64,000 nt of DNA from Nitrospinaceae bacterium (GCA_029261455.1 JAJDBH010000210.1:136-64135); one strand, 5' to 3'. Counted from the stretch's first letter, positions 25,632 through 46,175 are shown. A program made the numbers and translations. Notes: generated by a model not told the origin, from the sequence alone.

Positions 25632-27170
25632 ATGGCTGACTTTACACGCGAAGAAATTGAAGAGAAGTTAGAAGAGTATGTCGAACTGCTTGCGGCCCGG
25701 GAAGAAGAGGAAGACGAGTTCATAGATGAGCCCGAAGAGGAAATCCAAGCCGCTATCAGCGAAGCACCTGTTGGCGAAGAAGAGGAAAACCCAGACGGCA
25801 AGGATGAAGCTATTGAGGAAGTCGCTGAAGAAGCCCTCGTAGCAGTCGTTGAGGAAGAAGAACTCGGCTTGGAAAACATATTTGATGAGAAAGACCTATC
25901 CGAACTGGACCTATCTGGAATTGACTTTCATGGTATCAGCCTGCAAAAAACCAATTTCAAGAACACCAATCTCTCTAATAGCACTCTCGCGGAATCGAAC
26001 ATGGACCAGGCTAATCTGGATCAGGCCAACCTCAGCGATGCGGATATGGAAAACATAAGCTGTCTGGAAGGGGTAATGACCCACGCTAATATGGAGGCTA
26101 CAAACCTTCAAGGGGCCAAGCTCCTGGGAACCGATTTCAGTGAATCTAATCTGGAAAGGGCCAATTTTAGAAGGTCCAAGTCCATGGATAGCAAACTGGT
26201 CAAATGTAATCTTAGCGATACTGATTTCAGCAGTTCCGATTTCTCACGTGCAAACTTGACCGATGCCAAAATCACCGATAGCGACTTGAGCCGAGCCCGG
26301 TTTAATAATGCTGTTTTTGAGAGGACTGATTTCACCGATTCCCGGTTGAGCATGGGAGTCTTTTTTGAGGCTGACTTTAAAAATGCAAACCTCAACCGTG
26401 CCTTGATAAAAGGAGCTAAGCTCGCAGGAGGAAACTTCACCGATGCCAATCTTGCACGGGCTGATATCACCGGAGCTGACCTCACAGATGCACGCTTTCA
26501 TAACTCAGACTTGAGCCGCGCTAAATTAAATGGTGCCATACTGAGAAGAACGGACCTTAAAGATTCCGACTTGTCCGAAGCAGATATAAATCTCGCAGAC
26601 CTGACCGGTGCAAACCTGGTTGGAGCTAAATTGTCTGGGGCAAATTTAGACCGTATCAAATTAAATCAAGCCAAGTTAAATGGTGCGCAATTAAGTGGGG
26701 CCAGAATGACCAAGGCCAAGTTAACCCAAGTAGATTTGACCAAGGCAGATTTGAGCGGGGCTAACCTGACAGGAGCTGAGTTAAACGAGGCCATACTTGA
26801 AGGGGCTGATCTTAGTAGAGCTAATTTAACAGAAGCCATCTTGAAAAATACGAACTTGAAAAACACGTTCCTGATTGGAGCAAATCTGCAAAAAGCAAAT
26901 CTAGAAGGAGCAAATCTGGAAGGTGCAGACTTGGCAGGAACAAAACTTAGGAAGGCCACTTTACAAAATGCTAACTTGAAACAAGTAGATCTACGGCGAT
27001 CTGATTTGGAGCATGCTGATTTCTCTAAAGCAAAGCTGAACTCTGCAAATTTCACAGGAGCAAAGATGAGTGAAAGCCTGTTCATAGGTGCAGACCTGAC
27101 AGGAGCCAAAATGGACTCTGCCGACACCACAGACACCCAGTTTGAAGGAGCCATCGGGTTTAAGGCCTAG
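25632..27170 (+). CDS. Pentapeptide repeat protein with Glu-rich N-terminus
   Basis: About 420 aa of A(D/N)LxxA-type repeats after a highly acidic ~85-aa leader. Confidence 0.93.
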   Translation: MADFTREEIEEKLEEYVELLAAREEEEDEFIDEPEEEIQAAISEAPVGEEEENPDGKDEAIEEVAEEALVAVVEEEELGLENIFDEKDLSELDLSGIDFHGISLQKTNFKNTNLSNSTLAESNMDQANLDQANLSDADMENISCLEGVMTHANMEATNLQGAKLLGTDFSESNLERANFRRSKSMDSKLVKCNLSDTDFSSSDFSRANLTDAKITDSDLSRARFNNAVFERTDFTDSRLSMGVFFEADFKNANLNRALIKGAKLAGGNFTDANLARADITGADLTDARFHNSDLSRAKLNGAILRRTDLKDSDLSEADINLADLTGANLVGAKLSGANLDRIKLNQAKLNGAQLSGARMTKAKLTQVDLTKADLSGANLTGAELNEAILEGADLSRANLTEAILKNTNLKNTFLIGANLQKANLEGANLEGADLAGTKLRKATLQNANLKQVDLRRSDLEHADFSKAKLNSANFTGAKMSESLFIGADLTGAKMDSADTTDTQFEGAIGFKA

Positions 27171-29782: not shown

Positions 29783-30838
29783 GTGAATACCCGTTCCAAA
29801 ATCCTTCAGGACGTTCAGAACTATTACGGAAAAATACTTAAAACAAAAAATGACCTTCAGACCAGTGCCTGTTGCGCGGCAGATACCATGCCTGCGTACC
29901 TACGCCCTTATTTAAAAAATATACATGAGGAAGTCCAATCAAGATTTTATGGTTGCGCTTCCACGTTCCCCACAAGCCTTTATGGAAAAACCGTGGTAGA
30001 CCTTGGTTGCGGCTCCGGACGCGATTGCTACCTGCTAGCTCAGGTGGTAGGCCCTGATGGCATGGTCATCGGCATTGACATGACTGATGAACAATTGGCA
30101 GTTGCAAAAAAACATATCGATTTTCATACGAAAAATTTCAACCTGGAAAAACCTAACGTTGACTTTCGCAAAGGCTGGATAGAAGACCTTACTTCGGCAA
30201 ACCTGGAAGACAATTCTGTAGATGTGATTATCTCCAATTGCGTGATCAACTTGTCTCCCGACAAGGAAAGTGTATTTCGTGAAATTTTTCGAGTTCTCAA
30301 ACCGGGTGGGGAGTTATATCTCTCAGACGTTTTTACCGGACGACGGGTGCCGGAGCCACTGACTACCGACCCAATTCTACTTGGCGAATGCCTCGGCGGT
30401 GCCCTTTATATAGAAGACTTCAGACGCATGATGAGAAACGTAGGGGCTCTCGATTACCGGGCTGTTTCCAAAAACCCGCTCACTCTCAACAACGAAGACA
30501 TCCAGCGCAAGGCCGGCATGATCGATTTTTATTCCATGACCGTGCGTAGCTTCAAATGCGATTTCGAAGACATTTGTGAAAACTTTGGTCATGTTGCCTA
30601 CTACAAAGGTAGCATTCCTGAATTCCCACACGGGTTCACTCTTGATGACCATCATTATTTTCAGACCGGAACTCCAGTACCCGTTTGCGGCAACACCAGT
30701 AAGATGTTGAGCGAAACCCGATTCGGCGAGCACTTCAATATCCTCGGAGATTTCTCAACCCACTACGGCCCCTTTGACTGCAGCACTCCTCAAGCTCAAG
30801 AAGGTATCTCCGCAAGTAGCGATGGAGCCTGTTGCTAA
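29783..30838 (+). CDS. arsM: Arsenite S-adenosylmethyltransferase (ArsM/AS3MT-like)
   Basis: SACC, FYGC, DLGCGSGRD, SNCVINLSPDK, GECLGGA, terminal CC. Confidence 0.85.
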   Translation: MNTRSKILQDVQNYYGKILKTKNDLQTSACCAADTMPAYLRPYLKNIHEEVQSRFYGCASTFPTSLYGKTVVDLGCGSGRDCYLLAQVVGPDGMVIGIDMTDEQLAVAKKHIDFHTKNFNLEKPNVDFRKGWIEDLTSANLEDNSVDVIISNCVINLSPDKESVFREIFRVLKPGGELYLSDVFTGRRVPEPLTTDPILLGECLGGALYIEDFRRMMRNVGALDYRAVSKNPLTLNNEDIQRKAGMIDFYSMTVRSFKCDFEDICENFGHVAYYKGSIPEFPHGFTLDDHHYFQTGTPVPVCGNTSKMLSETRFGEHFNILGDFSTHYGPFDCSTPQAQEGISASSDGACC

Positions 30839-31283: not shown

Positions 31284-32549
31284 TCAGGCATCCAGGGTTA
31301 GGTCATCTTTAGGGATGCTAATGCACGCAAGACAGGAACCTGCTTCGGGCTCCGACCCGGGTTCTCCCACTAACTCCACCGCACCATTCTTGATAGCAGT
31401 GAGACAGGTTCCACAATTGCCGGCACGGCAACCTGAATCAATGGGGATCTGGTTCGCTTCCGCGAAATCCAGCAATGATGCCGCTTTTGAATCCCACACC
31501 AAAGTTTTTCCTGACTTCTGAAACTGGATATTAATTTTAGCAACGCTTTCCTTGCTTGTTTCGACCTTGCAACCTTTAACTGTAGCTGGACCAAAAGCCT
31601 CAAAATGAATATTTTTTTTGGGAACTCCCCAGCCGTTTAAATCTTTTCTCAAATCTTTAACCATTGGAGGCGGAGCACAAATATAAAAATCAAAGTTATT
31701 TGACGGAAGAATTGCCTTTAAATTTTCTACAGTAACCCGACCCTGAACTTGATAATCATCGTTCAACACATCGGTTTCTGCTGGCGAACTATAAAATACA
31801 TTCAAGCTAACGTTTTCATTCTCCCTAGCCACCATTTCCAGGTGCTCCTTCATAATATGCTCTGCCCTGTTTCTCACACCCAAGAAAAACCAGACCTCTC
31901 TCTGGGAACCCATTTCAGTGATGGCATTGAGCATGCTGAGAACAGGGGTGATTCCCACCCCTCCCGCTAAAAATACTACCGGAGTTTGTTTCATCATACT
32001 CAGGCTAAAATGTCCACTGGGAGCTTTAACATCGACTATGTCATTCTCGTTCAGAGAATCATGAAAATAGTTGGAAATTAATCCAGGAGGAGCAGTAAGG
32101 TTGTCTCTTGGAGCCAGGACTCTTTTGATAGATACTCGATAGCGATCCGGATGGTAAGGGCTGTCGGATAGAGAATAGCAACGAATAACCGGCTGAGGCT
32201 GATCGGGTAAATGAACCTGAAAAGTCAGAAACTGTCCCGGTAAAAATCCGGGCAGCTCCTTACCATCATGTGGAGCGAGATAAAAGGAAGTAATATCGTC
32301 CGTTTCTTTGACTTTAGAGATCACCTGAAACTTTCTAAAACCGTTCCAAGACAGTTTCAACTGCTTTGTTTCGATTTCACGCCGATCCATTATGCTTTTG
32401 ATCTTCGCCTTTAACAGCTCTGCTTCCAAATCAGCACTGTTCTGGCTAATCGCAAGAATCCGCGAGTTATTAGCCAAAAGCACTAACACATAGGCTACCA
32501 ATCCTAATAAAAAAACCAGCGCAACAAAACTGAATATTATATTTAGCAC
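31284..32549 (-). CDS. Membrane-anchored FAD/NAD(P)-binding oxidoreductase with C-terminal [2Fe-2S] ferredoxin (FNR/PaaE/Hcr-like)
   Basis: N-terminal TM; RCYSL, GGVGITP, HFEAFG, CRAGNCGTC...C. Confidence 0.9.
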   Translation of the reverse strand: MLNIIFSFVALVFLLGLVAYVLVLLANNSRILAISQNSADLEAELLKAKIKSIMDRREIETKQLKLSWNGFRKFQVISKVKETDDITSFYLAPHDGKELPGFLPGQFLTFQVHLPDQPQPVIRCYSLSDSPYHPDRYRVSIKRVLAPRDNLTAPPGLISNYFHDSLNENDIVDVKAPSGHFSLSMMKQTPVVFLAGGVGITPVLSMLNAITEMGSQREVWFFLGVRNRAEHIMKEHLEMVARENENVSLNVFYSSPAETDVLNDDYQVQGRVTVENLKAILPSNNFDFYICAPPPMVKDLRKDLNGWGVPKKNIHFEAFGPATVKGCKVETSKESVAKINIQFQKSGKTLVWDSKAASLLDFAEANQIPIDSGCRAGNCGTCLTAIKNGAVELVGEPGSEPEAGSCLACISIPKDDLTLDA

Positions 32550-32588: not shown

Positions 32589-34481
32589 CTACGGTGTTGT
32601 TAAAACTGGCTCTGTCTTCACGACAAGCATATCTTTTTTAAAGCTTGGTTTGAAATGATACAAATGGCATTTCTGGCATTCAAGGTCAATTTGCAACTTC
32701 GAATGACACTGCATACAAGTCTTCTTACTGATGAACTCAAAGTTACTGACCCAATTAACGGAGTCGTATTGCTTAAAAGACGCCATATAGTCCACTTCCT
32801 TATTAAGGATATGACAATTCGAGCATGCGCCTTTGGTTCCTAATATTTCTATATGATTTTCATGCTTATAGCGCACATAAGGGCTGTCATTTTTATTTTC
32901 ATAATTCCATGCCACCGCTAAATGGGAACCAACCTTTGAATTTTTAACCTCCGATACCGCATGGCATTTGATGCATCCACCCACGCCATCCTTAACAGAA
33001 AGAATCTGATCACGCATAGCAATCGCTCTTGCTGCCTTGTCTTCCTCTTTCTGATTTAAAGACACAGCCAAGGCAAACTCTAACCAGCTTTTAACCACGG
33101 GGTCAGCATGCCCTGAAGGTTTGTAGCGGATTTCCAGCATGTCGGTATACCAACCTCCAAACCTCGCCTCTGCGGGAGACTCATACTCCAGATTCAGCCC
33201 CCATGAGCAAGCCGCACGTTTGAGCACTTCAGGGTTCAAACCCATCAACAGGTTTTCAGACATTGGGGTTTCCGTTTGACTATCAATCAACTCCGCGAAG
33301 GGAGTGCTACTTTCTTCAGCCATAGCAAGAACCAGATCCTGCATAGGTTGGTCATAAATTTCCGGGTCATCTTCAGGAATATTTAAAAGAAAGGCACTCA
33401 CTAAAGCCGGTTGTTCGGTAGAAACACTGAGAAATTCTTCCTCCTCTTTTACATTACCCTCTGGAAAATTACATGCCTGCACCAAAGAGTCGTGGTCAAT
33501 CCGGTTTTGTATCAACTCCGGAAGCCTAAGGAGTATGAGATCTTTTTTCTTGATCTGCGAATCATGACAAGCAGCACAAACTGTCTCATAACTACTCGGA
33601 CGTACCTCCCTGTCCTCTAGCGTTATCATGTGGCAGCCTATGCATGACTCTGGAGCTTTGTCAGAAACCTTGGGATTCTCAAAATGCTTTTTCAAGTGAG
33701 AGCTATGATCAAACTTGATCGAGTTGCGGTTGAAATAGGGGTATTTTTTAGAAAACTCAGGATGCCCGTGCTCTAAGCTCGTGAACTTACTCTTATGGCA
33801 TGAATTGCACTGTTCTGGGAACAATGCTCTAACATTCATGCTTGGTCCATTATGCTCGCGATGGCACATGACACATTGCGTATCACCAACTTTTCTTTCT
33901 GGAGACATATTGGCGTTATGTGCCTTAAAACTCGGGCCACCAAAACTATGGCAATTCACACACCGGGATGAAAGATCAGAATCGCTGAATACTGCATTAA
34001 TCCATTCTACAGGACCTTTGCCATGAGCTGCATGACAAGTGGAACAACCTTCTTTTTCGGTAAATTTGGCATGGGATTTGGACAAGGGTCCAGGATCAGA
34101 AATACTGATCATACCTCCAACCTTAGGATCCAGCACCAGAGAGGAACCTATCAAGGCTAAAACAATACTAACAGCTAGCAGTGCCAATCTTCCACGGATG
34201 ATCCGCAAGGTACTTCGAGGGGCACATGGCGACCTTTGGATTGAGCATTCTCCACCTGAACCAGGACCGTCTTCACACGGACCACCGAATCTTTTCTCCC
34301 TCCTGCATTCCCATCGATCATTTTTTAGAAACGGGGTGCATTCCTGAGTTCCACCGCAGGTTCCATCCACCTCCGGACCATGATTACAGGGTGTTTGCCA
34401 TAAAGATGCTCTCCCACAACGATAGGGTAGTTTAGGCCTTTCATAATAACTCTGATCGTGACCAAACTTATTGTCTTCCAT
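32589..34481 (-). CDS. Membrane-anchored decaheme cytochrome c with Cys-rich N-terminal domain
   Basis: 10 CxxCH motifs after a single TM helix; 8 non-heme Cys before the TM. Confidence 0.9.
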   Translation of the reverse strand: MEDNKFGHDQSYYERPKLPYRCGRASLWQTPCNHGPEVDGTCGGTQECTPFLKNDRWECRREKRFGGPCEDGPGSGGECSIQRSPCAPRSTLRIIRGRLALLAVSIVLALIGSSLVLDPKVGGMISISDPGPLSKSHAKFTEKEGCSTCHAAHGKGPVEWINAVFSDSDLSSRCVNCHSFGGPSFKAHNANMSPERKVGDTQCVMCHREHNGPSMNVRALFPEQCNSCHKSKFTSLEHGHPEFSKKYPYFNRNSIKFDHSSHLKKHFENPKVSDKAPESCIGCHMITLEDREVRPSSYETVCAACHDSQIKKKDLILLRLPELIQNRIDHDSLVQACNFPEGNVKEEEEFLSVSTEQPALVSAFLLNIPEDDPEIYDQPMQDLVLAMAEESSTPFAELIDSQTETPMSENLLMGLNPEVLKRAACSWGLNLEYESPAEARFGGWYTDMLEIRYKPSGHADPVVKSWLEFALAVSLNQKEEDKAARAIAMRDQILSVKDGVGGCIKCHAVSEVKNSKVGSHLAVAWNYENKNDSPYVRYKHENHIEILGTKGACSNCHILNKEVDYMASFKQYDSVNWVSNFEFISKKTCMQCHSKLQIDLECQKCHLYHFKPSFKKDMLVVKTEPVLTTP

Positions 34482-35311
34482 TATACGAAGTACACCATAA
34501 CAAGGGTTAAATGCCAGATCACCATTGCCATTACCGCACCTGCCAAGGGAATGTGGACCAGAAGCCAGGTTTTAAGTAATGTTTGAAGTGCATAATGAAA
34601 GTCAATCTTCCTCTTTTTTTCTGCTAGCGCATAAACCTTGTCCAAATATTCACGTTCCTTTTCATTTAAGAAACGTTCTAATATCATGCATTGCTGGTGC
34701 ACCCAATGCTGAGGTAGGTGGCTACCAAATATATTATTTATGAAAAACCTTGGCCGTTGAAAATATTGCCCCAAGGTTTCCAGATAATGTTCGGCCAGCG
34801 TACTACTACCGGTTTCTTCGGTACACTTCAGAATAAGAGACTCTACTTCCTCTCTTATTTCAGCAAGCTCTCTTGGAATGCGTTCATAAATGACTTCCAC
34901 ACCGCTTCGGGTTAGCTGACGGGGATAAACTTTTTCAATAAAGAGTCCCACTATTCCTGAAATAGAGGTGATATAAAATAGAACCGTCATCACCTGCCCA
35001 TAAAATCCTTTCGACCATATGCCTCCGATGTGTAGCCAAAACAAGAACAGAGCCAGAAACCCGCAAACCACGTGAAGTAGAAACCATCTAGATGAAGAAG
35101 CAAGAGGCAAAAATGGCAATCGCTTACGTGCACTAAAAAGAGAAAGAAAAATCAGTATCCCAAATAATACCCAGCCATTGGCAAAAGCTGAAATACCGAG
35201 GGCGCTATCAATCTGATAGGTCCACATCCATGTCACTAGAAATAAAAGAGTCGCCAAAACCACGTAGACCCAATTTCGGACTAGACTAAAACCCTGTTGA
35301 ATTTTCATCAA
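34481..35311 (-). CDS. Integral membrane protein, putative di-heme cytochrome b (ferric-reductase-like)
   Basis: Multiple TM helices; two H-x13-H pairs (LHVVCG...WLH and VHIPL...WH). Confidence 0.7.
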   Translation of the reverse strand: MMKIQQGFSLVRNWVYVVLATLLFLVTWMWTYQIDSALGISAFANGWVLFGILIFLSLFSARKRLPFLPLASSSRWFLLHVVCGFLALFLFWLHIGGIWSKGFYGQVMTVLFYITSISGIVGLFIEKVYPRQLTRSGVEVIYERIPRELAEIREEVESLILKCTEETGSSTLAEHYLETLGQYFQRPRFFINNIFGSHLPQHWVHQQCMILERFLNEKEREYLDKVYALAEKKRKIDFHYALQTLLKTWLLVHIPLAGAVMAMVIWHLTLVMVYFV

Positions 35312-37007
35312 TATCTATCTTTCTAAAGTCTACTCGGCTCATGGCATCATGCGGGCAGGCAAAAACACAGGCTGGCCCACTAATCTGGTCGGCACACAGG
35401 TCACACTTCGTCGCCTTAAGTATGGGTTTCTGATTCTGAGGGTCTGTAATTAATTGCCCTTCATGATCGTTGATCGACACCATCCTGATATTGGAATAGG
35501 GGCAGGAGTTCGCACAAGTTTCGCAACCAATACAAGTATCATCATTAATAATGACCATACCTCCAGACATGGACCGATGAATCGCACCAGTAGGACAACC
35601 GATCATACAAACAGGATCAGCACAATGCATGCAGGCATTGGCCACCATCCAGTTCCCAAAAGTCTTGCCATGCCTGACAAATCTGGGATTGCCATCATGC
35701 GTTGCGGAGCAAGCCTGAACACAGTCATCACACCGCACACATCGATCAAGATTAATCAGCATCGCCTGAGTTCCATTTATAAAACGTTCTTCAACCGCCC
35801 ACTCCATTAAAGCTCCATCGGTCAAGGTACGATCGATATAATCCTGCAACCGCCTTGACTCAAAGGAAGACTGCGAAGTCGCCTGTCTAAACCCTTCTCT
35901 ACCAGATGACCAGTAAGTGAATAGGTGTTTCTCTACAATTTTACTAGGTACCCGGAGCATTTCTGCGTACCCAATAGCTGTGATGGTCACTCTCATACCA
36001 ACATTAGGTTCTCCCTGCCATACTTGGAACAGTTCGTCCGCTCCGTAAAAATCCCCTGTACCCAAATAGGTTAGAGTCTGCTGGCCATTTCCCCGGTCTA
36101 CAGAAACCCGAGCAAACCCAGCCCGAACCAATAATATTCCATCTGAATAATCGCCCTGATTGGCAATAATCGGTTCATCCTTGATGCCATGGGTTTTATC
36201 ATGACTTTGAAGCTTGTTATAGGTTAGATGCCAATCAAATTTTCCGTAGGTTTCAAAGAGGGTGGCATCTGCCACCTCCTGAAGATCTTTATCATCTAAG
36301 TGAGAAAAAATGGAAGTCGCCCTTAGGTGGGCGTTGAGGGCGTTGGTACGATAACGCTGATCAATGAGGCGGCGCCATCCTTGATCATATTTCCTGAACT
36401 CACGGAGTCCCTGCCAGCGTATCTCCAAAAGCTCTGTATCGGATTCTGCAAAAATAGTGGATGTTCTAGGGGTCCGCCCCAAGGCGGCAAGTTCTCCAAA
36501 TAACGCTCCTTTTCCCAGAGAAGCGGTTTTATTCTTATCTAAAACAGCAGGAACATCTTGGAGAAAAACATGTGATGACCCCAAATCCTCCGCATCTCGA
36601 ACCATAGCATGCAGACCATAGCGTTTTACATCACGGGTTTCCGGAATTTTACTCCGGGTCCAAAGCTGTTTGAGGGCTTGCCAAAAGGTTTTTTTTTGAA
36701 TGGTTCGTCGACCTAGCATTTCACCAGGAAGGCCAGGGAACAACACGACTTTTAGTGAACCGTCCAGAACCAGGAATGCAGAATTGCCATAGTCTCCCTC
36801 GCGGATGACAATGTCTCCCGCTGAGTACTTTACAATCCGCGCATCATTTTTAAGAATTCCTCTGAGAGAGCAATGAGGGGGAAATTTGCTCTCTTCTATC
36901 GCTGCAATCTCTGGAGTGGTCAACAGCCGGTCCACATCCAATTCGGTCATAAGCAGACCGAATGGTTGGTCCCACCTCTGCGGACGCACTTGAGTCGTTA
37001 TAGCCAC
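35286..37007 (-). CDS. Tandem cyclic-nucleotide-binding domains fused to a DmsB/NrfC-like 4x[4Fe-4S] domain
   Basis: IREGDYG...FGELAALGRTPRTSTI; second CNB fold; CVRCDDCVQAC, CMHCADPVCMIGC, CIGCETCANSC, CDLC...CVFAC. Confidence 0.9.
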   Translation of the reverse strand: MAITTQVRPQRWDQPFGLLMTELDVDRLLTTPEIAAIEESKFPPHCSLRGILKNDARIVKYSAGDIVIREGDYGNSAFLVLDGSLKVVLFPGLPGEMLGRRTIQKKTFWQALKQLWTRSKIPETRDVKRYGLHAMVRDAEDLGSSHVFLQDVPAVLDKNKTASLGKGALFGELAALGRTPRTSTIFAESDTELLEIRWQGLREFRKYDQGWRRLIDQRYRTNALNAHLRATSIFSHLDDKDLQEVADATLFETYGKFDWHLTYNKLQSHDKTHGIKDEPIIANQGDYSDGILLVRAGFARVSVDRGNGQQTLTYLGTGDFYGADELFQVWQGEPNVGMRVTITAIGYAEMLRVPSKIVEKHLFTYWSSGREGFRQATSQSSFESRRLQDYIDRTLTDGALMEWAVEERFINGTQAMLINLDRCVRCDDCVQACSATHDGNPRFVRHGKTFGNWMVANACMHCADPVCMIGCPTGAIHRSMSGGMVIINDDTCIGCETCANSCPYSNIRMVSINDHEGQLITDPQNQKPILKATKCDLCADQISGPACVFACPHDAMSRVDFRKIDIDENSTGF

Positions 37008-37127: not shown

Positions 37128-38105
37128 CTATTTATAATCCGCTTTAGCTGGGAGCTTACTTCCAACAACCCCGGTCAAATCTTTTCCCGCTACAGATTTA
37201 ATAAAGATTAAAGCATTTTCTCTTGAAGGTGCGGCTAATAATCCCGCCGCTTCAGAAATTCCACTAAGCGCGGACTTGGCAATCTCAACTCGTTTGTTTT
37301 GCGCTTCCTTATATTTAGCCTCACCAGATTTAGAAATGGCTTCAGTGGCAGAAACCAGCGCCGCCGCTTGACCAATCACATAAAGACTAGCCAACTCCGT
37401 AGGAGTCATTTCAGCATTGGTCTTGATATCGGGTGGATAATGCCTGTGACGCACTGAACCTTGAGAGTATTTAACCAGTTCGAAGTTGGGGTTAATCGGA
37501 TGTCCGGCTCCCAACATTTTAGCCAAGTCATCGGCTTTAAGGTTGGGGTGAGCCAGACCATGGCAAGTCATGCAGTTTTCAGCAACCTCATACTGCATGG
37601 ATGGCCATATCAAACCCGCCGCCTTGGAATCAGCAACCCGTTTGATTTTATGATCCGCCGCTTCCTGATCTCGCTTAACATCCTTCCCACCATAATTATC
37701 ATGAAGCGCCAACCAATCAGAAGACGCACCATGGCAACTTTCACAAGAGGTTCCAGACTTTGCAGCCGACTTGGAACCGGCATCTTTCTTCACAAGCGTG
37801 TAATGGCACAGATAACAGGTTTCATTCCTTTTCATCCGTTTCTGTCCCCCAACAGCACTCAATATTTTCTTGGGAGAGGGTTTACTATCATCTTTAGGCT
37901 CTCGGTGAACAGTCCTAAAAGACGTGTAATGCTTGGTTTTCTCCCAAATCTTGGTCTCTTCTTCATGACATTCCTCACAGAGCTTGGCACCTTTGAAAAA
38001 AGGTTGGGCCATTGATGTAACAGGAAAAACCAGCCATGCTAACGCCAAAACCAACGCCATCAGAGAAAAAGGTTTAAATATGAAATATGTATCATCACGC
38101 TTCAT
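37128..38105 (-). CDS. Periplasmic tetraheme cytochrome c (c554-like)
   Basis: Signal peptide; CEECH, CYLCH, CESCH, CMTCH; start MKRDD behind GAGGG. Confidence 0.88.
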   Translation of the reverse strand: MKRDDTYFIFKPFSLMALVLALAWLVFPVTSMAQPFFKGAKLCEECHEEETKIWEKTKHYTSFRTVHREPKDDSKPSPKKILSAVGGQKRMKRNETCYLCHYTLVKKDAGSKSAAKSGTSCESCHGASSDWLALHDNYGGKDVKRDQEAADHKIKRVADSKAAGLIWPSMQYEVAENCMTCHGLAHPNLKADDLAKMLGAGHPINPNFELVKYSQGSVRHRHYPPDIKTNAEMTPTELASLYVIGQAAALVSATEAISKSGEAKYKEAQNKRVEIAKSALSGISEAAGLLAAPSRENALIFIKSVAGKDLTGVVGSKLPAKADYK

Positions 38106-38185
38106 AACACCCTCACTTTTTAAAGGGAGCGGTAACACAACCCAGCAAATATTGCAGGGCCGGAAAAACCCGATCCACTCTCAAA

Positions 38186-39613
38186 TTAAAATTGATAGAG
38201 AATTTCTGTTCGCAAACCAAAACCGTCACTACGCTTTTCCTGGACAGTATAATGGGTGTCTACTTGGAGCTGGATTCTTTGGGCCAGTCTTTGACGGAAT
38301 TCAAAACCAACCGCTATGTCATCAAATCTTTCACCACTGGTATCTTTTCTACCGGCCAATTCAAACGTAAGACTTGTTCTATGGTGATTCCAAAATGCTT
38401 GGTATCCCGTGGCAAACCCGGCCACATCATCCGCAAAACTATTCAACTCAGACCCAAAATTACCGAGACTGGGAGAGGCAAATAAGATACCTAAAGCCCC
38501 CAAAGGCCCACCAACTATCGCCTCACGACCCACTTGAGTGAAATTTCCAGCCGCAACAAAGGCATTAAAATATACGATGTCATCAGATTTTTCGGGTGTA
38601 AAGGAAGTTTCGGCAGAGAAAAGGGTTCCAGTACCAGCCTTTGCGTTATCTTCTCCATCCGCAACCGAGCTATTAATTCTGAAAGCCGTACTGTAAACCC
38701 CGATTCTTTGAATTGTTGAAAACCCTACATGAAAACTATCACCAGCAGAGTCCTCGTCAGTAACATACACCAAGTCCAGATTCCAAGAGAGATCCTGCAT
38801 ATCTGCAGAATTAAACAACCCAAACATATTCGCAGTATCATCCCGCCCCGCATTGCTTCTTCCCACCTCGTTCCAACCCCACACGAAGGAAGATCTCAAG
38901 CTCGGTATACCTGGAAGATGAATATTATTGCGAGTAATCCCAATGGCATCTATTTCATCATTGAGCATGATGCCCTCTTGGAACTGCAATAATTGCCTTC
39001 CCACAGAAAACCCAAAGTCCAGTGGCTTTGTTCCGGCAGGGTCCAGCTTGGGAAACAGACTTCCCAAGTCACCCTCAAAAAACATGGTCCGGATATCCAT
39101 ATTAAATTCGGACTGACCAGAACCCCGATTATCGTTAAACGATACTCGTGAAAATTGGGTGGGCAAATTTCTATCTAGAGGTCGAGCTCCAATAATAAAC
39201 TTTTCAGTACCTGTTAACTGCACATTAGCGTAAAGATCCAGGCGATTTGCCCATTCAGAAGCAGTACTGTTCGAGCCCGCATTTTCAAACATTTGCAAAC
39301 TCGAACGCATGGTTCCAAAAACCCACAACTGCGGTTGCCAGACTGCTCCCCATGGGGTCTCAAACCCCTCATAAAGATCTCCTACTCCAAGAAAAAGGTC
39401 TCCACCCTCATAAATCAGCGGAGGGCGCGTACCGGTGTCAGAAGGAGGACGCAACTGGATATGCTCCTCAGAAAAGGAGCTCGCCTCTGAGGTGTCTCCC
39501 AATGGAAACCAATCTGCGTAAGCCGGAATAGAAAAGCATAAGACCATACCTGTGAATATAAGCCCGAATAGAACTCTATGAGTTCGGCCTAAAACTGCGC
39601 CATACATTCTCAC
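38186..39613 (-). CDS. Putative outer-membrane beta-barrel (porin-like)
   Basis: Signal peptide ending AYA, amphipathic beta pattern, C-terminal ILYQF BAM signal. Confidence 0.75.
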   Translation of the reverse strand: MRMYGAVLGRTHRVLFGLIFTGMVLCFSIPAYADWFPLGDTSEASSFSEEHIQLRPPSDTGTRPPLIYEGGDLFLGVGDLYEGFETPWGAVWQPQLWVFGTMRSSLQMFENAGSNSTASEWANRLDLYANVQLTGTEKFIIGARPLDRNLPTQFSRVSFNDNRGSGQSEFNMDIRTMFFEGDLGSLFPKLDPAGTKPLDFGFSVGRQLLQFQEGIMLNDEIDAIGITRNNIHLPGIPSLRSSFVWGWNEVGRSNAGRDDTANMFGLFNSADMQDLSWNLDLVYVTDEDSAGDSFHVGFSTIQRIGVYSTAFRINSSVADGEDNAKAGTGTLFSAETSFTPEKSDDIVYFNAFVAAGNFTQVGREAIVGGPLGALGILFASPSLGNFGSELNSFADDVAGFATGYQAFWNHHRTSLTFELAGRKDTSGERFDDIAVGFEFRQRLAQRIQLQVDTHYTVQEKRSDGFGLRTEILYQF

Positions 39614-39655: not shown

Positions 39656-41608
39656 TTAATTGTTAGCTTTAAAACTAACTTCTTTTTCCCACAGAATTTC
39701 ATAACCTGCGGCAACGCCGTCAACGACCTCACGGGCACTCATGGCATAGTCAAATCCCCGCCCCTGAATAGCTCCCACTAAATTAGCTGGAGCCATACCC
39801 GCTTTCAATTCGATTTTAGCCTTGTAAGGACCTTTGCCAGTCAGCGCATCGTCATCAACCCGATATTTAGCCCAACGATAACCGGATGGTTCGATACCTC
39901 TTCGATGATTTCGCTCTGTACCTGGCTCACCCGATAACACCAATGACTGGACTGAAGGTCGCACAAAAGGAATTGTTATCAATGGATAAGGGATGGGGAT
40001 GATTCTCTCCCGCTCTCCGCCACGCAGGTTTGAGACTACAAACCGTGATCGCAAGTCAAACAACTGCCCATCCAAAGGAAGCTCCCCATTATGAACAAAT
40101 GTGGATTCTCGATCGCGCACATCCCCATTCGGGTCCAGATCGCCTGATTCGAGAACCACCTTTCCGTCACGGTCTGTCACAGTAACATGGAGCCAGACAA
40201 GGCGCTCTCCTGTAAACCCAGTCGGAACATTATGGCCATCCGTTAGATTACTAACCTTAACCTTAAAGTGTATGCCTTCCTCATTACTCTGCTCGGTAAC
40301 AACTTCTCCCAGATGATAGCCATTTCGCAATACTTCCAGACGTAATTTCCGGGCATATGCCAAATGTTCAAACTGTTTGTTTAAAATCTCACGGGCATCG
40401 TAGCGGTCATCGACTGAGTCCCAACGAACAGGGAACTTCATATCCTCGGTGACCTTGTCTTCAAACTCATCGGTACCCCAGCCGGCTTTATGATCAAACT
40501 CAAGCCACTCTCTCATACTAGCCATTTCCTGAGCCTCCGCGTTATGCGGAAAAATCCCGGGATGAATGACTGAATAGTCCGGCCCCGCAAAAAAGTGACT
40601 GGTGACCTTTCGGTCTTTAGTTGGTTTCCCTCCTACCATGGCAGCAGGTCCAACATCATACCCTGAAGCCACACCCTGCTCTTTACCCATATGACAATCC
40701 TGACAAGTGGTTCCCCTAGCCGCAGCCGGAGAAGTGCGGTACTCGCTAAATGCCTCCTCAAGGCGGAAACCATTAAACAAGGTTACATCGTGGCAAGTTC
40801 CACAAAATACAGGTTGGGAGATGGAAGCAAATTTCTTAACTTCTCTATGAATTTTCCTTCCAGGCTTTCCTTCTTCGGTCACAACGCGGTATTCATCTGT
40901 ATTATCCAGAACACGTGCCATCTCTTCATTACCCATTGGCCCATATACCGGCTCGAGCAAGCCCCCTTGCTCTAAAGCTAATCTCCCACTCCTTTTATTG
41001 TAGTCCTTGTTCAAACGATGACAGACCACACAGGTTATGCCTTCACGGGATGTAGGGTGTCGGTCCAAGTTTGACATAAAAGGAGACTCACCAAGGTTGG
41101 CACCAATGGGGCTGTGGCATCTCAGGCAGAAATCCCCATTCGATCCACTGGACAACTCATTGATCTCACTGCTGAGAGAAAGATAAACCGGGCTCAACTG
41201 TGCATAAGAATGCGACGAAACCGACCACTCTCGATAATGTTTGGGATGACAGGTGCCACAGGTCGCGGCCGAAGGAAATTTACTTTCTGCAAACAGTGCT
41301 TCATGGTCTGCTGCCGCTTGTAGCGCGACATCTTTTCCAGAATTATCTTCACCCGAACCGGTCTTTTTTCCCACAGAATTAGTGGAAGATTCAGAGCCCT
41401 CTTGTGCCACCGCGCTCGCCTTCTTATCCGACATTGCAGAAGCTTTTTCGGAAGAAGCATTATTAGTGGAGCCAGGTACATTCTGGATGCAGGAATAAAG
41501 AAAGAAAAGAGCAAAACCTATTATTGCTAATGACAGAAAAGAGAAACAGTTATTTTTAGAATAAGATTTTAAAGGCAACACATCGGTAGGCTTAGTAAAA
41601 ATTCTCAT
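39656..41608 (-). CDS. Pentaheme cytochrome c, probable lipoprotein
   Basis: LYSC lipobox plus low-complexity linker; CGTCH, CLRCH, CVVCH, CGTCH, CQDCH; GHNVPTG. Confidence 0.88.
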   Translation of the reverse strand: MRIFTKPTDVLPLKSYSKNNCFSFLSLAIIGFALFFLYSCIQNVPGSTNNASSEKASAMSDKKASAVAQEGSESSTNSVGKKTGSGEDNSGKDVALQAAADHEALFAESKFPSAATCGTCHPKHYREWSVSSHSYAQLSPVYLSLSSEINELSSGSNGDFCLRCHSPIGANLGESPFMSNLDRHPTSREGITCVVCHRLNKDYNKRSGRLALEQGGLLEPVYGPMGNEEMARVLDNTDEYRVVTEEGKPGRKIHREVKKFASISQPVFCGTCHDVTLFNGFRLEEAFSEYRTSPAAARGTTCQDCHMGKEQGVASGYDVGPAAMVGGKPTKDRKVTSHFFAGPDYSVIHPGIFPHNAEAQEMASMREWLEFDHKAGWGTDEFEDKVTEDMKFPVRWDSVDDRYDAREILNKQFEHLAYARKLRLEVLRNGYHLGEVVTEQSNEEGIHFKVKVSNLTDGHNVPTGFTGERLVWLHVTVTDRDGKVVLESGDLDPNGDVRDRESTFVHNGELPLDGQLFDLRSRFVVSNLRGGERERIIPIPYPLITIPFVRPSVQSLVLSGEPGTERNHRRGIEPSGYRWAKYRVDDDALTGKGPYKAKIELKAGMAPANLVGAIQGRGFDYAMSAREVVDGVAAGYEILWEKEVSFKANN

Positions 41609-41836: not shown

Positions 41837-42682
41837 TCATAGTCTACGAACAAAGGAATGATGCACTATTAGAGTTAATAAATATTGCACGGCCATAACC
41901 CAGGCAAAGGGGATCAGGCTGGATGAAAGAATTCCAAGAATAGCGAACAGGGCAAGCAGGAAAAGCGGAAGGTCTAGCCCATTCCACCGCCAAAGCAGTA
42001 GAAGAATTTTTATTTTCTCGTAGCAGGCTTTTCGTTGTTCCAAGGTCAAGTCCGCTTGCATATCTTGATCGTCTGATTTCGCCTGCCGCAAAAAACTCCA
42101 TTCACCGCGAAAAAATAATTGTTGCGCCTGCATATAATAAAAATAAAGCACCAGCACCCATGACTTTTTAGCCTTATTTTTTTGGCGGGTACTTTCAATC
42201 TCCCTTTCCATGCCATCAAAGCCTTGCAATATCAAGGTCGCCAGACTTTGCTTACAATAGTCATAAGAGATGGCTCTCAATATAATCAGTCCTGCAATAA
42301 TTTTCAGGACTGGTTCATATTCCGGAAAACCTTTAATGAGCCCTATCACCACCGCAAGGTAGGCAAAGTAGCCAGCGATACCATCAATCAGCCTACCCCA
42401 TTCGCTTGCCATGGCCTTAGCCCGAGCCAGTTGCCCGTCTACACAATCCAGCACCAAAGTCATTTCCAGCAAAATCCCCCCCAAGACCAGGGATACCGGA
42501 CTGGCAAAACTGAACGCATAACCGGAAGCAAAACCTACCAGGACGGAAAAATAGGTCACTTGATTGGGAGTCACCGGAGTGTTCTTTAAAAAACCTACAA
42601 TCTTTTTCGCAATCGGGTCCTGAATATAACGATTGACTGGCTCCACCAAGTCTCCGAAGGCGTGTCCCGATGTCTCACTCAT
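41837..42682 (-). CDS. CDP-alcohol phosphatidyltransferase family protein
   Basis: TPNQVT; DCVDGQLAR-x8-GRLID motif. Confidence 0.88.
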   Translation of the reverse strand: MSETSGHAFGDLVEPVNRYIQDPIAKKIVGFLKNTPVTPNQVTYFSVLVGFASGYAFSFASPVSLVLGGILLEMTLVLDCVDGQLARAKAMASEWGRLIDGIAGYFAYLAVVIGLIKGFPEYEPVLKIIAGLIILRAISYDYCKQSLATLILQGFDGMEREIESTRQKNKAKKSWVLVLYFYYMQAQQLFFRGEWSFLRQAKSDDQDMQADLTLEQRKACYEKIKILLLLWRWNGLDLPLFLLALFAILGILSSSLIPFAWVMAVQYLLTLIVHHSFVRRL

Positions 42683-42685
42683 GGC

Positions 42686-43693
42686 CTACATCCATTTTTC
42701 TTTTTGATACCATTTGATCGTCTCATCCAACCCTCTACTCAGCTCATATTTAGGTTCGAAGTCGAACGTCTTAAAAAAATTTTCCGGTGAAGCTGACCAG
42801 GAGCTCTGACGTATATCAATCATCCTTTGCCGATCAAACAACGCGGGTTTGGAGTTGAAGCTAGACCACGCCTCAAAAAACAAAGCAACAGGAACAAGCA
42901 CCACTTCAGGAACTCTCAAAGTCTTCACATGAACATTCAAAATACGCGCGCACTCTTTCGCAATCTGCTCCCAAACATAAACACGGCCATCAGTAACAAA
43001 ATAACTGTGTCCCTTCTGCTTAGATGGATCGGAAGCAGTGAGCATAGCATCGACTAGGTCAGAAACATAAATCAACGAAAGTTCTTTACCTGCCCTTCCA
43101 ATTTGCAACCCCCAACCTTTCTGAATCAATTTAATGAAAGTAAAAAAGTTTTCTTCTCGAGGACCATACACCACGGGAGGACGAATAACAGTAAGAGGGA
43201 GCGACTGCGAATACTGAATTGCAATTTCTTCTCCCGCAAGTTTTGACTGCCCGTAAAAAGTCACAGGTTTGCAAGGTGTGATTTCATCAACAAGGCTACC
43301 CTGAGAACTGGGACCAGTTGCCGCCAGGCTACTCAGATGGACGATGCCCTTAATCCGGCTCCCACGTTTTTGGCATTGCTCATAGAGATTTGAGCAGGCA
43401 GTCGCATTGACCTGAAAATAACCGGAACGGGATTTCGCCTTAGTCAATCCTGCGCAATGGAAAACATAATCTAACTCCTCCAAAGCAGGGACTATGAAGT
43501 CTGGTTGCGCTAAATCCACTCGGTGAAGGTGCACCTTAGAAGCATCCAGCCATTTGAGATCAGAGGATTCTCTCACCAGTCCATGAACCGTGCAACCAGA
43601 GGCCAAAAGCTGACCTACCAGATGACTGCCGATAAAACCATTCGCGCCGGTGACCAACGCCGTAGCACCTTTAAGGTGTGATGATGCGTTCAT
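42686..43693 (-). CDS. Extended SDR (NAD-dependent epimerase/dehydratase), candidate 3-oxo-ceramide/3-ketosphinganine reductase
   Basis: TGANGFIG, YGQSK, RPPVVYGP; position in operon with spt. Confidence 0.8.
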   Translation of the reverse strand: MNASSHLKGATALVTGANGFIGSHLVGQLLASGCTVHGLVRESSDLKWLDASKVHLHRVDLAQPDFIVPALEELDYVFHCAGLTKAKSRSGYFQVNATACSNLYEQCQKRGSRIKGIVHLSSLAATGPSSQGSLVDEITPCKPVTFYGQSKLAGEEIAIQYSQSLPLTVIRPPVVYGPREENFFTFIKLIQKGWGLQIGRAGKELSLIYVSDLVDAMLTASDPSKQKGHSYFVTDGRVYVWEQIAKECARILNVHVKTLRVPEVVLVPVALFFEAWSSFNSKPALFDRQRMIDIRQSSWSASPENFFKTFDFEPKYELSRGLDETIKWYQKEKWM

Positions 43694-44792
43694 AGATGCG
43701 ATGTCTTTTATAAATAGTTCCCCCTATCCGGCTCATCGGATCGGTAATGCTTTTATTATCTTCCAACAACCAGGACATCTCGCACCATTTTATCTTTTTA
43801 TCCAGAAACAATCTGTAGGTTTCATAATAAAACCAGGCATCAATACCGAGCTTGCGATATTTCTTTTTCACCCCAAGAATAGGAACTCGGTAAGCATTAA
43901 TTTTACTTTTCTTCCATAAAAATCGTGCCCAACCGAAGGGGAACAGGCTGCCATTTAGCTCTATAAGTATCTGGTTGATATCGGGAAAGGCCATGGAAAA
44001 ACCTGCGGGTTCACCTTTAACTTCGGCAATCATACAAAATTCAGGTTGAATAATGGGCTTCACTTCTCGAATAGAAAATTCAAATTCTTTTCGTTTCATA
44101 GGCACGAACCCCCAATTCAGACTCCAAGCAGAATTATAAACATCCCAAAGAATCGAAATTTCTTGATCAAACCGGCTCAGATTCAGAGGCCTTATATTAA
44201 AATGATTCCTTCGCTTTAGCTTTACTGCGGCCTGCTCCAGGTAATCTGGAATCTTTATCAAGTCAAGGCGGAAAGCTACAAGGTCTTTAGCCTTTTGCAG
44301 GCCCCATTCTTCAAAATGTTTTACATAATATTCAGGGTTATAAGGGATGCCCAGCATAGTGGGGGAGTCAAACCCTTCTACCAACAGACCACATTCATGA
44401 TTGGTCGACAAATTCATCGGTCCTATCAGACGAGCATACCCTTTTTCCTGACACCATTGATAAGCCTTGTCCAACAAAAAGCGGAAGAGGTTTGGGTCAT
44501 CCATCGCCTCAAGCATGCCAAACATTCCAGCAAGTTCCGAATGAACTTCCTGATAGCCCTGATCATGAATCAGAGCAATTCTACCCACTGGTGATCGATC
44601 ACTATCAAGCGCCAAAAAAAGATCGACTTCAGCATGTTCGAAAAAAGGATTGATGTCAGGATTCAGGAACTTTTTACGTTCCTGTATAAGGGGAGGAACC
44701 CAGCATGGCTGGTCTTTATAAACTTTCCAGGGTAGACGAATGAATCGTTCCAGATCCTGTTTGGTTTCAACCTTTACTAGTTCAAAACCCAT
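43671..44792 (-). CDS. GNAT-fold N-acyltransferase, bacterial ceramide synthase (CerS/YghO-like)
   Basis: FIRLPW..Y...WVPPL, NPFFEH, GPMNLSTNHECGLLVEGF, YNPEYY, NWGFVP, EMSWLLEDN. Confidence 0.8.
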   Translation of the reverse strand: MGFELVKVETKQDLERFIRLPWKVYKDQPCWVPPLIQERKKFLNPDINPFFEHAEVDLFLALDSDRSPVGRIALIHDQGYQEVHSELAGMFGMLEAMDDPNLFRFLLDKAYQWCQEKGYARLIGPMNLSTNHECGLLVEGFDSPTMLGIPYNPEYYVKHFEEWGLQKAKDLVAFRLDLIKIPDYLEQAAVKLKRRNHFNIRPLNLSRFDQEISILWDVYNSAWSLNWGFVPMKRKEFEFSIREVKPIIQPEFCMIAEVKGEPAGFSMAFPDINQILIELNGSLFPFGWARFLWKKSKINAYRVPILGVKKKYRKLGIDAWFYYETYRLFLDKKIKWCEMSWLLEDNKSITDPMSRIGGTIYKRHRIYERIITP

Positions 44793-44794
44793 TT

Positions 44795-46126
44795 TTACTT
44801 AGGAATAACACCTAACTTTGTCCCAAGCTTCTTGAAAGAACCAAGTACTTTATCAAGATCTTTCTGGTCATGGGCAGAGGTATAGCTGGTTCTAATCATA
44901 GCGTTAAGAGGTGGCACAACGGGTGATACTGCGACTCCTGCAAAAACCCCATCATCAAAAAGGAGTCGGTTCAAATAAAGAGTGAGAGCTTCTTCTCCTA
45001 TTTTTATGGGCACAATAGGAATAGAATTATTATTAACCTGAAAGCCCATATCAAAAAACCCTCTTTTTATATAAGCTGTATTTTCCTGCAACTTATCGAT
45101 ACGCTCTGGCTCATTAATCATGATATCCAGACCCGCAATGACCCCGGCAACAGACGCAGGAGGCAGAGCTGCGGTAAAGATAAATGCCGAAGCTTTATGA
45201 CGAATAAACTCGGTTATCTTGGACTTGGCAGAAATAAACCCACCGATAGACCCCAAGCTTTTGGAAAACGTTCCCATATAAATATCTATTTCGTCTTCCA
45301 AGTTGTAGTAGCTGGCAACGCCCTTGCCATTTTCACCCATGACACCCAGGCCATGAGCCTCATCAACCATGACGTTGGCACCATAATCTTTCGCAAGTTT
45401 CACAATAGCGGGAAGATTGGCAATATCGCCGCTCATACTGAATATACTGTCAGTAATAATTATTTTTCCTTCAACATCTGAATATTTTTTCAAATAATAT
45501 TCAAGATGATCCATATCATTATGCTGATAGCGGACAGTCTTTCCAGGTGCAACCCCACACCCCTCGTAGATACTGGCATGGTTTTCCCGGTCCGAAAAAG
45601 CCACATCCTTTCTACCCAATAGACAGGCGATGGTTCCCTGATTTGCCTGAAACCCCGTGGACATGACAATGGTATCTTCCCGGTTCAAAAAAGAAGAAAT
45701 TTCCCTTTCCAAGGTCTTATGCAGATCGAAGGTGCCATTGAGAAAACGGCTACCGGTACAACCAATGCCGAATTTTTCCAATGCATCTCTAGCCGCTGCG
45801 ACCACACGAGGTTCTTGTGCCAGTCCGAGATAATTATTGGTGGAAACAGAAATAGCTGGCTTCCCGTCAATGACAACATGGCACCCATCAATCTCCTCAA
45901 TCGCTCTGAAATACGGGTAAATCCCCAGTTCCTTGGCTTGTTCTGGCGCAAAATAGCCGAAGCATTTTGCCAGAATCCCTTTGTCTTTACTGTTGGGGGG
46001 GCGCAGGTGGGAATTTTCAAAATCAAACTTCTTTTTCAACAAAGAAGTGATTTTACTCTTCTTTAAATGAGAAGGTTCTCCGTCATTACTTTCAAGTTCA
46101 CTGAGCAGGGTAAAAGGTTTTGTCAT
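44795..46126 (-). CDS. spt: Serine palmitoyltransferase-like PLP alpha-oxoamine synthase
   Basis: YPYFR, NNYLGL, GSRFLNGT, TGFQAN, NHASI, DEAH, GTFSKS; adjacent to a CerS-like gene. Confidence 0.8.
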   Translation of the reverse strand: MTKPFTLLSELESNDGEPSHLKKSKITSLLKKKFDFENSHLRPPNSKDKGILAKCFGYFAPEQAKELGIYPYFRAIEEIDGCHVVIDGKPAISVSTNNYLGLAQEPRVVAAARDALEKFGIGCTGSRFLNGTFDLHKTLEREISSFLNREDTIVMSTGFQANQGTIACLLGRKDVAFSDRENHASIYEGCGVAPGKTVRYQHNDMDHLEYYLKKYSDVEGKIIITDSIFSMSGDIANLPAIVKLAKDYGANVMVDEAHGLGVMGENGKGVASYYNLEDEIDIYMGTFSKSLGSIGGFISAKSKITEFIRHKASAFIFTAALPPASVAGVIAGLDIMINEPERIDKLQENTAYIKRGFFDMGFQVNNNSIPIVPIKIGEEALTLYLNRLLFDDGVFAGVAVSPVVPPLNAMIRTSYTSAHDQKDLDKVLGSFKKLGTKLGVIPK

Positions 46127-46175
46127 AAGTTTCTCATCAGAAATTTATAAGAGTTTAAAACCATAATTTATAGTT

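Follow-up and report, generated by a model that had tools for sequence, protein, structure and literature searches.

PtdE, a ferredoxin with tandem cyclic nucleotide-binding domains, as a probable relay of the Ptd electron conduit and its possible gating by a second messenger

We analyzed a 64,000-nucleotide stretch of DNA from a Nitrospinaceae bacterium (GCA_029261455.1 JAJDBH010000210.1:136-64135; this whole stretch is called the window below), focusing on the open reading frame (ORF) at positions 35286-37007, which encodes tandem cyclic nucleotide-binding (CNB) domains joined to a ferredoxin domain. Judged from its sequence, the ORF is PtdE of the ptdABCDEFG cluster, which has already been named (bioRxiv 10.1101/2023.11.21.568154). 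Elbon, Stewart, and Glass, who named the cluster, call its function 'completely unknown' and describe a CNB/4Fe-4S protein accompanied by cytochromes with five, four, and ten hemes, a porin, a membrane protein resembling ferric reductases, and an oxidoreductase of the FAD/NAD(P) type (bioRxiv 10.1101/2023.11.21.568154). We slightly favor a reading in which PtdE serves the Ptd conduit as a four-cluster relay and its first CNB domain (CNB1) has a functional site for cyclic nucleoside monophosphates (cNMPs), the bound nucleotide likely gating the passage of electrons. The parts of this reading differ in strength. PtdE is likely a cytoplasmic four-cluster relay of the conduit and CNB1 probably binds a cNMP, while the chances that nucleotide binding gates electron flow through PtdE appear evenly balanced. 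We infer electron flow, its direction, cofactor binding, and the partners of PtdE from sequence, gene order, and natural fusions.

The gene and its parts are laid out as follows, in coordinates of the window:

35286-37007, minus strand: ptdE, the subject of this study, a CNB1-CNB2-4x[4Fe-4S] protein of 573 residues
36324-36983, minus strand: CNB domain 1, canonical, residues ~9-228
36450-36500, minus strand: phosphate-binding cassette 1 (F170-F186), with G171, E172, R181, T182, and the family-specific R178
36786-36788, minus strand: Gly74, the counterpart of PKA Gly169 (the β2-β3 glycine that co-evolves with the cassette arginine)
35823-36323, minus strand: CNB domain 2 (CNB2), residues ~229-395, with a degenerate cassette at 35973-36050
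35322-35780, minus strand: HycB/DmsB/NrfC-type ferredoxin domain, residues 410-562, with cysteine groups at 35709-35741, 35595-35633, 35502-35534, and 35355-35405

The start codon is a GTG preceded by GGAGG, at a position common to close homologs, and the product matches Pfam cNMP_binding (E 4e-25), Fer4_11 (E 7e-11), and several Fer4 families. Conservation was read from the 120 best homologs (58-94% identity, the close set) and from a distant set of 150 representatives plus two fusion proteins, 142 of which span cassette 1. Cassette 1 (FGELAALGRTPRTST, residues 170-184) shows the canonical G-E...R at the correct spacing when aligned to the PKA and PKG cassettes, and Gly74 is present, in agreement with an earlier interpretation of this DNA (the sequence-only reading) that had called the cassette intact. 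CNB1 also contains an insert of ~70 residues (~88-160, ~36528-36746) that is absent from that reading, as is the gene's place in a multiheme operon of seven genes. The second domain had been described as degenerate on account of the sequence FYGADELF (residues 320-327), and this description holds: the cassette has no arginine, the canonical motif occurs in 0 of 147 representatives, and the β2-β3 position 288 is occupied by P, A, V, L, or I, the glycine being lost.

The C-terminal domain contains 16 cysteines in four groups, C423-433 (CxxCxxCxxxC), C459-471 (CxxCx4Cx3CP), C492-502 (CxxCxxCxxxCP), and C535-551 (CxxCx8Cx3CP), whose spacing fits HycB3/NrfC/DmsB-type chains, and each cluster-type cysteine is kept in 131-134 of 135 distant representatives. 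Together with a HycB-type predicted fold, these cysteines bear out the DmsB/NrfC arrangement reported earlier. No hydrophobic segment (maximum 19-residue hydropathy 1.39) and no twin-arginine motif were found in PtdE, and none of its 12 Pfam matches is a helix-turn-helix (HTH) family, so the original reading of a protein with neither signal or Tat peptide nor HTH stands. An AlphaFold model built from a 127-sequence alignment (pLDDT 90.4, pTM 0.88) gives a CNB1 fold resembling the MloK1 CNB domain (Z 12.6, root-mean-square deviation (rmsd) 2.2, 133 aligned), a CNB2 fold resembling PKG CNB-B (Z 15.1, rmsd 2.2, 129 aligned), and an Fe-S domain resembling HycB chain 7z0s_B (Z 14.8, rmsd 4.0, 145 aligned). 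PtdE, a soluble protein, is the sole full-length copy in its own genome, which is 84.5% complete. Two other identities were considered and ruled out: a CRP/FNR regulator, as there is no HTH and the C-terminus is an Fe-S domain, and an ortholog of DmsB, NrfC, or HydN, as the NCBIfam cut-offs are missed and the operon encodes no partner catalytic subunit.

The window carries all seven ptd genes, which match the preprint description gene by gene. They are co-directional, in the order A-B-D-E-F-G-C with ptdE fourth, and are separated by gaps of -26 to 120 bp, ptdF overlapping ptdE by 26 bp:

39656-41608, minus strand: ptdA, pentaheme cytochrome with 5 CxxCH motifs, related to cytochrome c552 (PDB 5ZE8, E 3e-9)
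38186-39613, minus strand: ptdB, putative porin, labeled from the preprint and its operon position
37128-38138, minus strand: ptdD, tetraheme c554-like cytochrome with 4 CxxCH motifs (Pfam Cytochrome_C554, E 5e-13)
34481-35311, minus strand: ptdF, membrane protein of 276 residues with 5 hydrophobic segments and His-x13-His pairs H80/H94 and H253/H267
32589-34481, minus strand: ptdG, decaheme cytochrome c with 10 CxxCH motifs, one transmembrane helix (94-112), and an N-terminal 8-Cys domain
31284-32549, minus strand: ptdC, N-terminally anchored FAD/NAD(P)H oxidoreductase with a C-terminal [2Fe-2S] domain

PtdC is related to flavohemoglobin and dioxygenase reductase domains. PtdB has no Pfam or NCBIfam match, and no solved relative of PtdD was found by sequence.

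We compared 80 genome loci, the best 80 of at least 564 confirmed loci, which by their record titles span Alpha-, Beta-, Gamma-, and Zetaproteobacteria, Planctomycetota, Verrucomicrobiota, Nitrospinota, SAR324, Elusimicrobia, and others. ptdF is present in 79 of the 80 loci, ptdG in 76, ptdD in 70, ptdC in 65, ptdA in 50, and ptdB in 47, and the E-F-G order is constant across the loci and many phyla. Of the 34 loci whose flanks are complete, all have C, E, F, and G, 32 have D, and 25 have A and B. PtdE is also naturally fused to PtdC (P0121, P0122, P0267) and to PtdF in six proteins (P0086, P0128, P0130, P0152, P0155, P0244), one of which is a short match only and one of which lacks the Fe-S part. 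In some Nitrospinota a second operon type encodes PtdE behind [2Fe-2S]-FAD-NAD domains (loci L014, L015, L023), giving proteins of 864-889 residues with the layout [2Fe-2S]-FAD-NAD-CNB-CNB-4x[4Fe-4S] in the order A-B-D(3 CxxCH)-G-E-F; no separate ptdC was found within the 20 kb examined at these operons. Some genomes (G042, G043, G045, G047) match both operon types. As separate observations, G043 has ptdG broken into two reading frames (L013:6236-8157), and ptdA-B is divergent from ptdD-E-F-G-C in G042 and G043 (L013, L016).

The membrane partner suggested by these fusions has invariant histidines (H80, H94, H253, and H267 in 77/77 sequences) that form two pairs 14 residues apart, a spacing typical of diheme b proteins, and PtdF is thus likely a diheme b membrane subunit. 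A wide fold search paired it with cytochrome b561 (Z 7.7, rmsd 3.0, 135 aligned), a score below the helical-bundle threshold. The fixed gene order and the fusions link PtdE genetically to an NAD(P)H flavoprotein on one side and to a heme-type membrane subunit on the other, and the proposal that PtdE is a cytoplasmic Fe-S relay is well supported by this operon context and by the fusions to both neighbors.

In CNB1, F170, G171, E172, R178, P180, and R181 are invariant in the close homologs (120/120), and T182 is found in 117. The sequence-only reading had held that a cassette not conserved among homologs would speak against it; such a lack of conservation was not seen, as G-E..R is intact in 120/120 close homologs, in 76 of the 78 genome loci that cover it, and in 108/142 distant representatives. 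Gly74 is kept in all 120 close homologs, and in the distant set it is kept in 94/103 intact versus 23/32 degenerate representatives. Co-evolution of the cassette arginine with this glycine is reported in PMC2246266. Of 31 long relatives, 20 were scanned, and 9 of these carry FHA domains, whose insertion points fall at three different places.

A further link to cyclic nucleotides comes from the neighborhood. Class III cyclase genes are the commonest non-ptd neighbors, occurring at 13 of the 80 loci in five lineages (nine confirmed by Pfam, the others by BLAST). Nine of the 13 loci are planctomycete, where the cyclase is divergent and directly upstream of ptdC. The remaining cyclases lie directly upstream of ptdA in SAR324, 250 bp after ptdG in a zetaproteobacterium (as part of a receiver-cyclase-phosphoesterase protein), directly after ptdG in a Tepidisphaeraceae genome (as an FHA-cyclase), and 1.8 kb after ptdC in an alphaproteobacterium. 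From each host's cyclase count and genome size, 1.07 of the 80 loci would be expected to have such a neighbor; with the nine planctomycetes collapsed, 5 are observed versus 1.07 expected, a rough Poisson P of 0.005, all enrichment figures here being rough because kin are not independent and sizes are rounded. The SAR324 genome holds at least 63 cyclases. In four of the planctomycete genomes where a cyclase adjoins the operon, PF00211 is matched only once in 4.6-6.0 Mb, presumably by that adjacent gene. Among 151 sampled Pirellulales genomes, ptdE occurs in 13, of which 12 carry the cyclase and 7 have it within 10 kb. Another 80 loci come from metagenomes and are mostly short, with 278 kb of flank outside the ptd genes; a cyclase is found in 3 of them, a raw count. 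The cyclase neighbors add independent support for a cNMP link of PtdE. The planctomycete cyclase family itself (L080:5506-7317, minus strand, and eight similar loci) is found in 50 of the 151 sampled genomes of the order.

Whether the ligand would be cAMP or cGMP was read earlier from the Arg-Thr pair of the cassette, taken by analogy to PKG as a weak hint of cGMP. This hint is not supported, and Arg-Thr was rejected as a cGMP marker because it is not diagnostic: Thr or Ser is ordinary in bacterial cassettes, and the PtdE family has T in 56 and S in 30 of 142. In the 27 CNB stretches of its own genome (28 matches less one fragment), the residue after the arginine is Ser in 15 and Thr in 5. The bacterial consensus cassettes in the available text of PMC2246266 likewise show RT or RS, and PKG CNB-A, with its Thr, is described in part of another paper as having only a two-fold cGMP preference (PMC3080414). 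Moreover, seven of the nine planctomycete PtdEs beside a guanylyl cyclase-like gene have Arg-Ser, so the residue does not track the type of neighbor.

The cyclases themselves are more informative. The zetaproteobacterial neighbor is close to PDB 2W01 (E 1e-66) and retains the Glu and Gly that the accessible part of PMC6005667 gives as the specificity signature of 2W01, the guanylyl cyclase Cya2. The planctomycete neighbor also has 2W01 as its best match, with Asp-Gly at the base-specificity positions. Cyclases of the other three lineages are Lys-type, Lys being an adenylyl signature according to the portion of PMC4215837 available. The Cya2-like neighbors in two lineages are probably guanylyl cyclases by these residues, and because they flank the operon there, cGMP stays a possible ligand of PtdE. 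In the zetaproteobacterium, a receiver, the Cya2-like cyclase, and a metallophosphoesterase are joined in one protein (L076:14712-16946, plus strand), a candidate cGMP make-and-break enzyme by its domain content. The cyclases of PtdE's own genome read Lys/Thr and Arg/Gly at the specificity positions. That genome has some 25 other CNB stretches besides PtdE, and we observed in it stand-alone small CNB proteins in tandem with intact cassettes (four on C141:6993-8647 and three on C167:4922-6600) and a CHASE2 cyclase that has Arg/Gly as an unusual specificity pair and is oriented divergently to a CNB-PAS-GGDEF gene (L185).

In the mechanism we propose, electrons would pass from NAD(P)H to the FAD and [2Fe-2S] of PtdC and then to the four [4Fe-4S] clusters of PtdE. 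From there they would reach the inner membrane, where PtdF would hold two b hemes, and then the decaheme PtdG, followed by the tetraheme PtdD and the pentaheme PtdA with the porin PtdB. cAMP or cGMP bound in CNB1 would switch or tune this passage by moving the hinge behind the cassette (residues E195, W198, G200, and R202, each of them conserved). Movement of the hinge would alter how PtdE docks to PtdC or PtdF, or shift its Fe-S domain. CNB2, with its site lost, would be structural. A more specific and tentative form of the idea, which we hold to be somewhat improbable as a whole, is an allosteric second-messenger valve in an electron wire, paired in the zetaproteobacterium and in Pirellulales-type planctomycetes with a dedicated Cya2-like guanylyl cyclase; PtdE would then be a bacterial effector of cGMP outside the classes of transcription factors and channels, and in Nitrospinaceae the valve would ration scarce reducing power.

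Several observations weigh against the gated relay. PtdF has no Foldseek match at E 0.001. No cyclase appears in the flank examined at 67 of the 80 loci, seven of the 80 host genomes have no PF00211 match (many are metagenome-assembled genomes and possibly incomplete), and the two class III cyclases of PtdE's own genome are both on other contigs. With the planctomycetes dropped, the enrichment falls to 4 observed versus 1.03 expected (P 0.02). Within the Pirellulales sample, 38 of the 138 genomes that lack ptdE carry the cyclase as well, and 6 of the 13 ptdE genomes do not have it within 10 kb. The cassette itself lacks G, E, or R in 34/142 distant representatives, which are scattered over the tree. 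In a fasttree phylogeny of 127 rows computed without the cassette columns, which is unrooted and does not distinguish gains from losses, the 31 degenerate rows need 18 changes, and well-supported branches force at least 9 of these. Given such repeated, scattered decay, many lineages can dispense with nucleotide input. R178 is retained more often (134/142) than R181 (124/142) or E172 (121/142) and persists in 31/32 degenerate representatives.

These last counts speak for PtdE as a constitutive relay, in which the CNB domains would serve as a scaffold for docking, or would use Arg178 to bind some other anionic metabolite, and cNMP binding would be absent or without effect. While the cassette decayed repeatedly, R178 persisted together with most hinge residues (E195, W198, G200, R202), so that CNB1 has a conserved role beyond the canonical site; CNB2, too, is retained although its site is lost in 147/147, and CNB domains are described as scaffolds for other ligands in the available text of PMC2246266. 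We nevertheless consider a purely constitutive relay unlikely, as G-E..R persists together with Gly74 in three quarters of the distant lineages and in almost every genome locus, and cyclases adjoin the operon more often than chance. The cyclase, phosphoesterase, and FHA links show coupling to signaling without specifying its direction, and the flow of information could be reversed: the PtdE clusters would read the redox state of the conduit and alter cNMP affinity or contact with a partner, such as a neighboring cyclase or an FHA-bound phosphoprotein, so that PtdE reports rather than gates. PtdE has no output domain, however, its genome has no linked cyclase, and its four HycB-type clusters, like its fusions to the donor and to the membrane acceptor, are consistent with throughput, which makes a reporter role quite improbable.

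Relay and regulation could also be as proposed with a different end point, electrons being consumed in the periplasm, where PtdD or PtdA would be the enzyme that reduces a sulfur compound or a nitrogen oxide, or running inward to NAD(P)+, with no export through the porin. ptdA and ptdB are missing from 9 of the 34 full-flank loci, where C, E, F, and G are always present; PtdD is c554-like; and the host appears to belong to the Nitrospinota, which are nitrite oxidizers. Nitrogen cycling is raised as an alternative in the available passages of the preprint as well (bioRxiv 10.1101/2023.11.21.568154). Against such a route, most loci with ptdA and ptdB have the two genes side by side. PtdC, for its part, falls in the flavohemoglobin/dioxygenase-reductase family, which oxidizes NAD(P)H, and we see only a slim chance that this route is the right one.

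Known cAMP control of respiration works through transcription. If the gated relay is correct, a messenger-binding Fe-S subunit would be a fast post-translational switch on electron export. Neither a direct second-messenger switch on electron export nor gating of Ptd was found in the literature searched, most subscription papers being outside its scope. The Cya2-like neighbors also offer a concrete lead on the function of bacterial cGMP. The cluster itself was already named; the additions made here are the tally of decayed cassettes, the stronger conservation of R178, and the neighbors of guanylyl type.

The family is widespread: 5339 homologs were scored, a search at E 1e-30 gave 643 clusters, and matches occur in 32/120 genomes of the phylum and in 30/69 other genomes of the family. 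Homologs at 76-84% identity are labeled Nitrospinae, Nitrospinaceae, or Nitrospina, and a sequence-atlas search returned matches only to clusters of identical architecture with automatic names. The PtdE described here is thus a new member of a named, uncharacterized, widespread family. Promoter and terminator scans gave chance-level counts (17 versus 16.8 and 11 versus 10.5), as did CRP-like and FNR-like boxes, none of which lies just upstream of ptdA, the patterns used being consensus sequences.

The N-terminal domain of PtdG (residues 1-86; 34224-34481, minus strand) has eight evenly spaced cysteines (22, 32, 42, 48, 59, 69, 79, and 86), each present in 51-53 of 55 homologs. The domain has no Pfam match, lies before the transmembrane helix, is absent from the second operon type, and is possibly a further metal site on the cytoplasmic side. 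Five genes lie upstream of ptdA (41837-47228, minus strand), the first a CDP-alcohol phosphatidyltransferase by Pfam; the other four we take to be NAD-dependent epimerase-like, GNAT-like, class II aminotransferase-like, and desaturase-like, a set that presumably resembles a bacterial sphingolipid cluster. Four of the five also precede ptdA in locus L021. A Cys-rich S-adenosylmethionine methyltransferase (Methyltransf_31; 29783-30838, plus strand), which we assume to be arsenite-methyltransferase-like, is convergent with ptdC here and in L021 and L024. At 25632-27170 (plus strand), a 512-residue protein has an acidic N-terminus and a long pentapeptide-repeat-like region, as read by eye from the sequence.

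Compared with the published description, the gene content found here is the same but the genes run A-B-D-E-F-G-C, and the c552 homology that the preprint gives for PtdA agrees with our match to PDB 5ZE8. The available preprint text assigns two 4Fe-4S clusters to PtdE, whereas the 16 conserved cysteines indicate four, and its passages do not mention nucleotide gating, fusions, cyclase neighbors, or Nitrospina (bioRxiv 10.1101/2023.11.21.568154). The Bact_Pyrredox family, as described in the available part of PMC2246266, also joins tandem CNB domains to a redox domain in bacteria, but there the redox domain is a flavin disulfide reductase rather than an Fe-S domain; the words ferredoxin and 4Fe-4S are absent from PMC2246266. 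With the PKA regulatory subunit, PKG, MloK1, SthK, and CRP, PtdE shares the CNB fold and cassette spacing. Unlike such CNB regulators and effectors, it has no kinase, channel, or HTH, and it has the extra Arg178 and the CNB1 insert. Whole-chain comparison of the model with tandem-CNB regulators gives a TM-score of ~0.2 and an rmsd of ~14, suggesting that the two CNB domains are arranged differently in PtdE. Cysteine spacing and fold are as in HycB, HydN, DmsB, and NrfC (HycB3 E 2.5e-18), but PtdE misses all NCBIfam equivalog cut-offs (DmsB 68 versus 214 bits), has two CNB domains in front, and belongs to an operon without a molybdoenzyme or hydrogenase partner. Porin-cytochrome conduits of the MtrCAB type have a quinol dehydrogenase where Ptd has a cytoplasmic NAD(P)H flavoprotein, an Fe-S relay, and a His-bearing membrane subunit. 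The two share a porin combined with multiheme cytochromes, and the ptd preprint names such conduits as a comparison (bioRxiv 10.1101/2023.11.21.568154).

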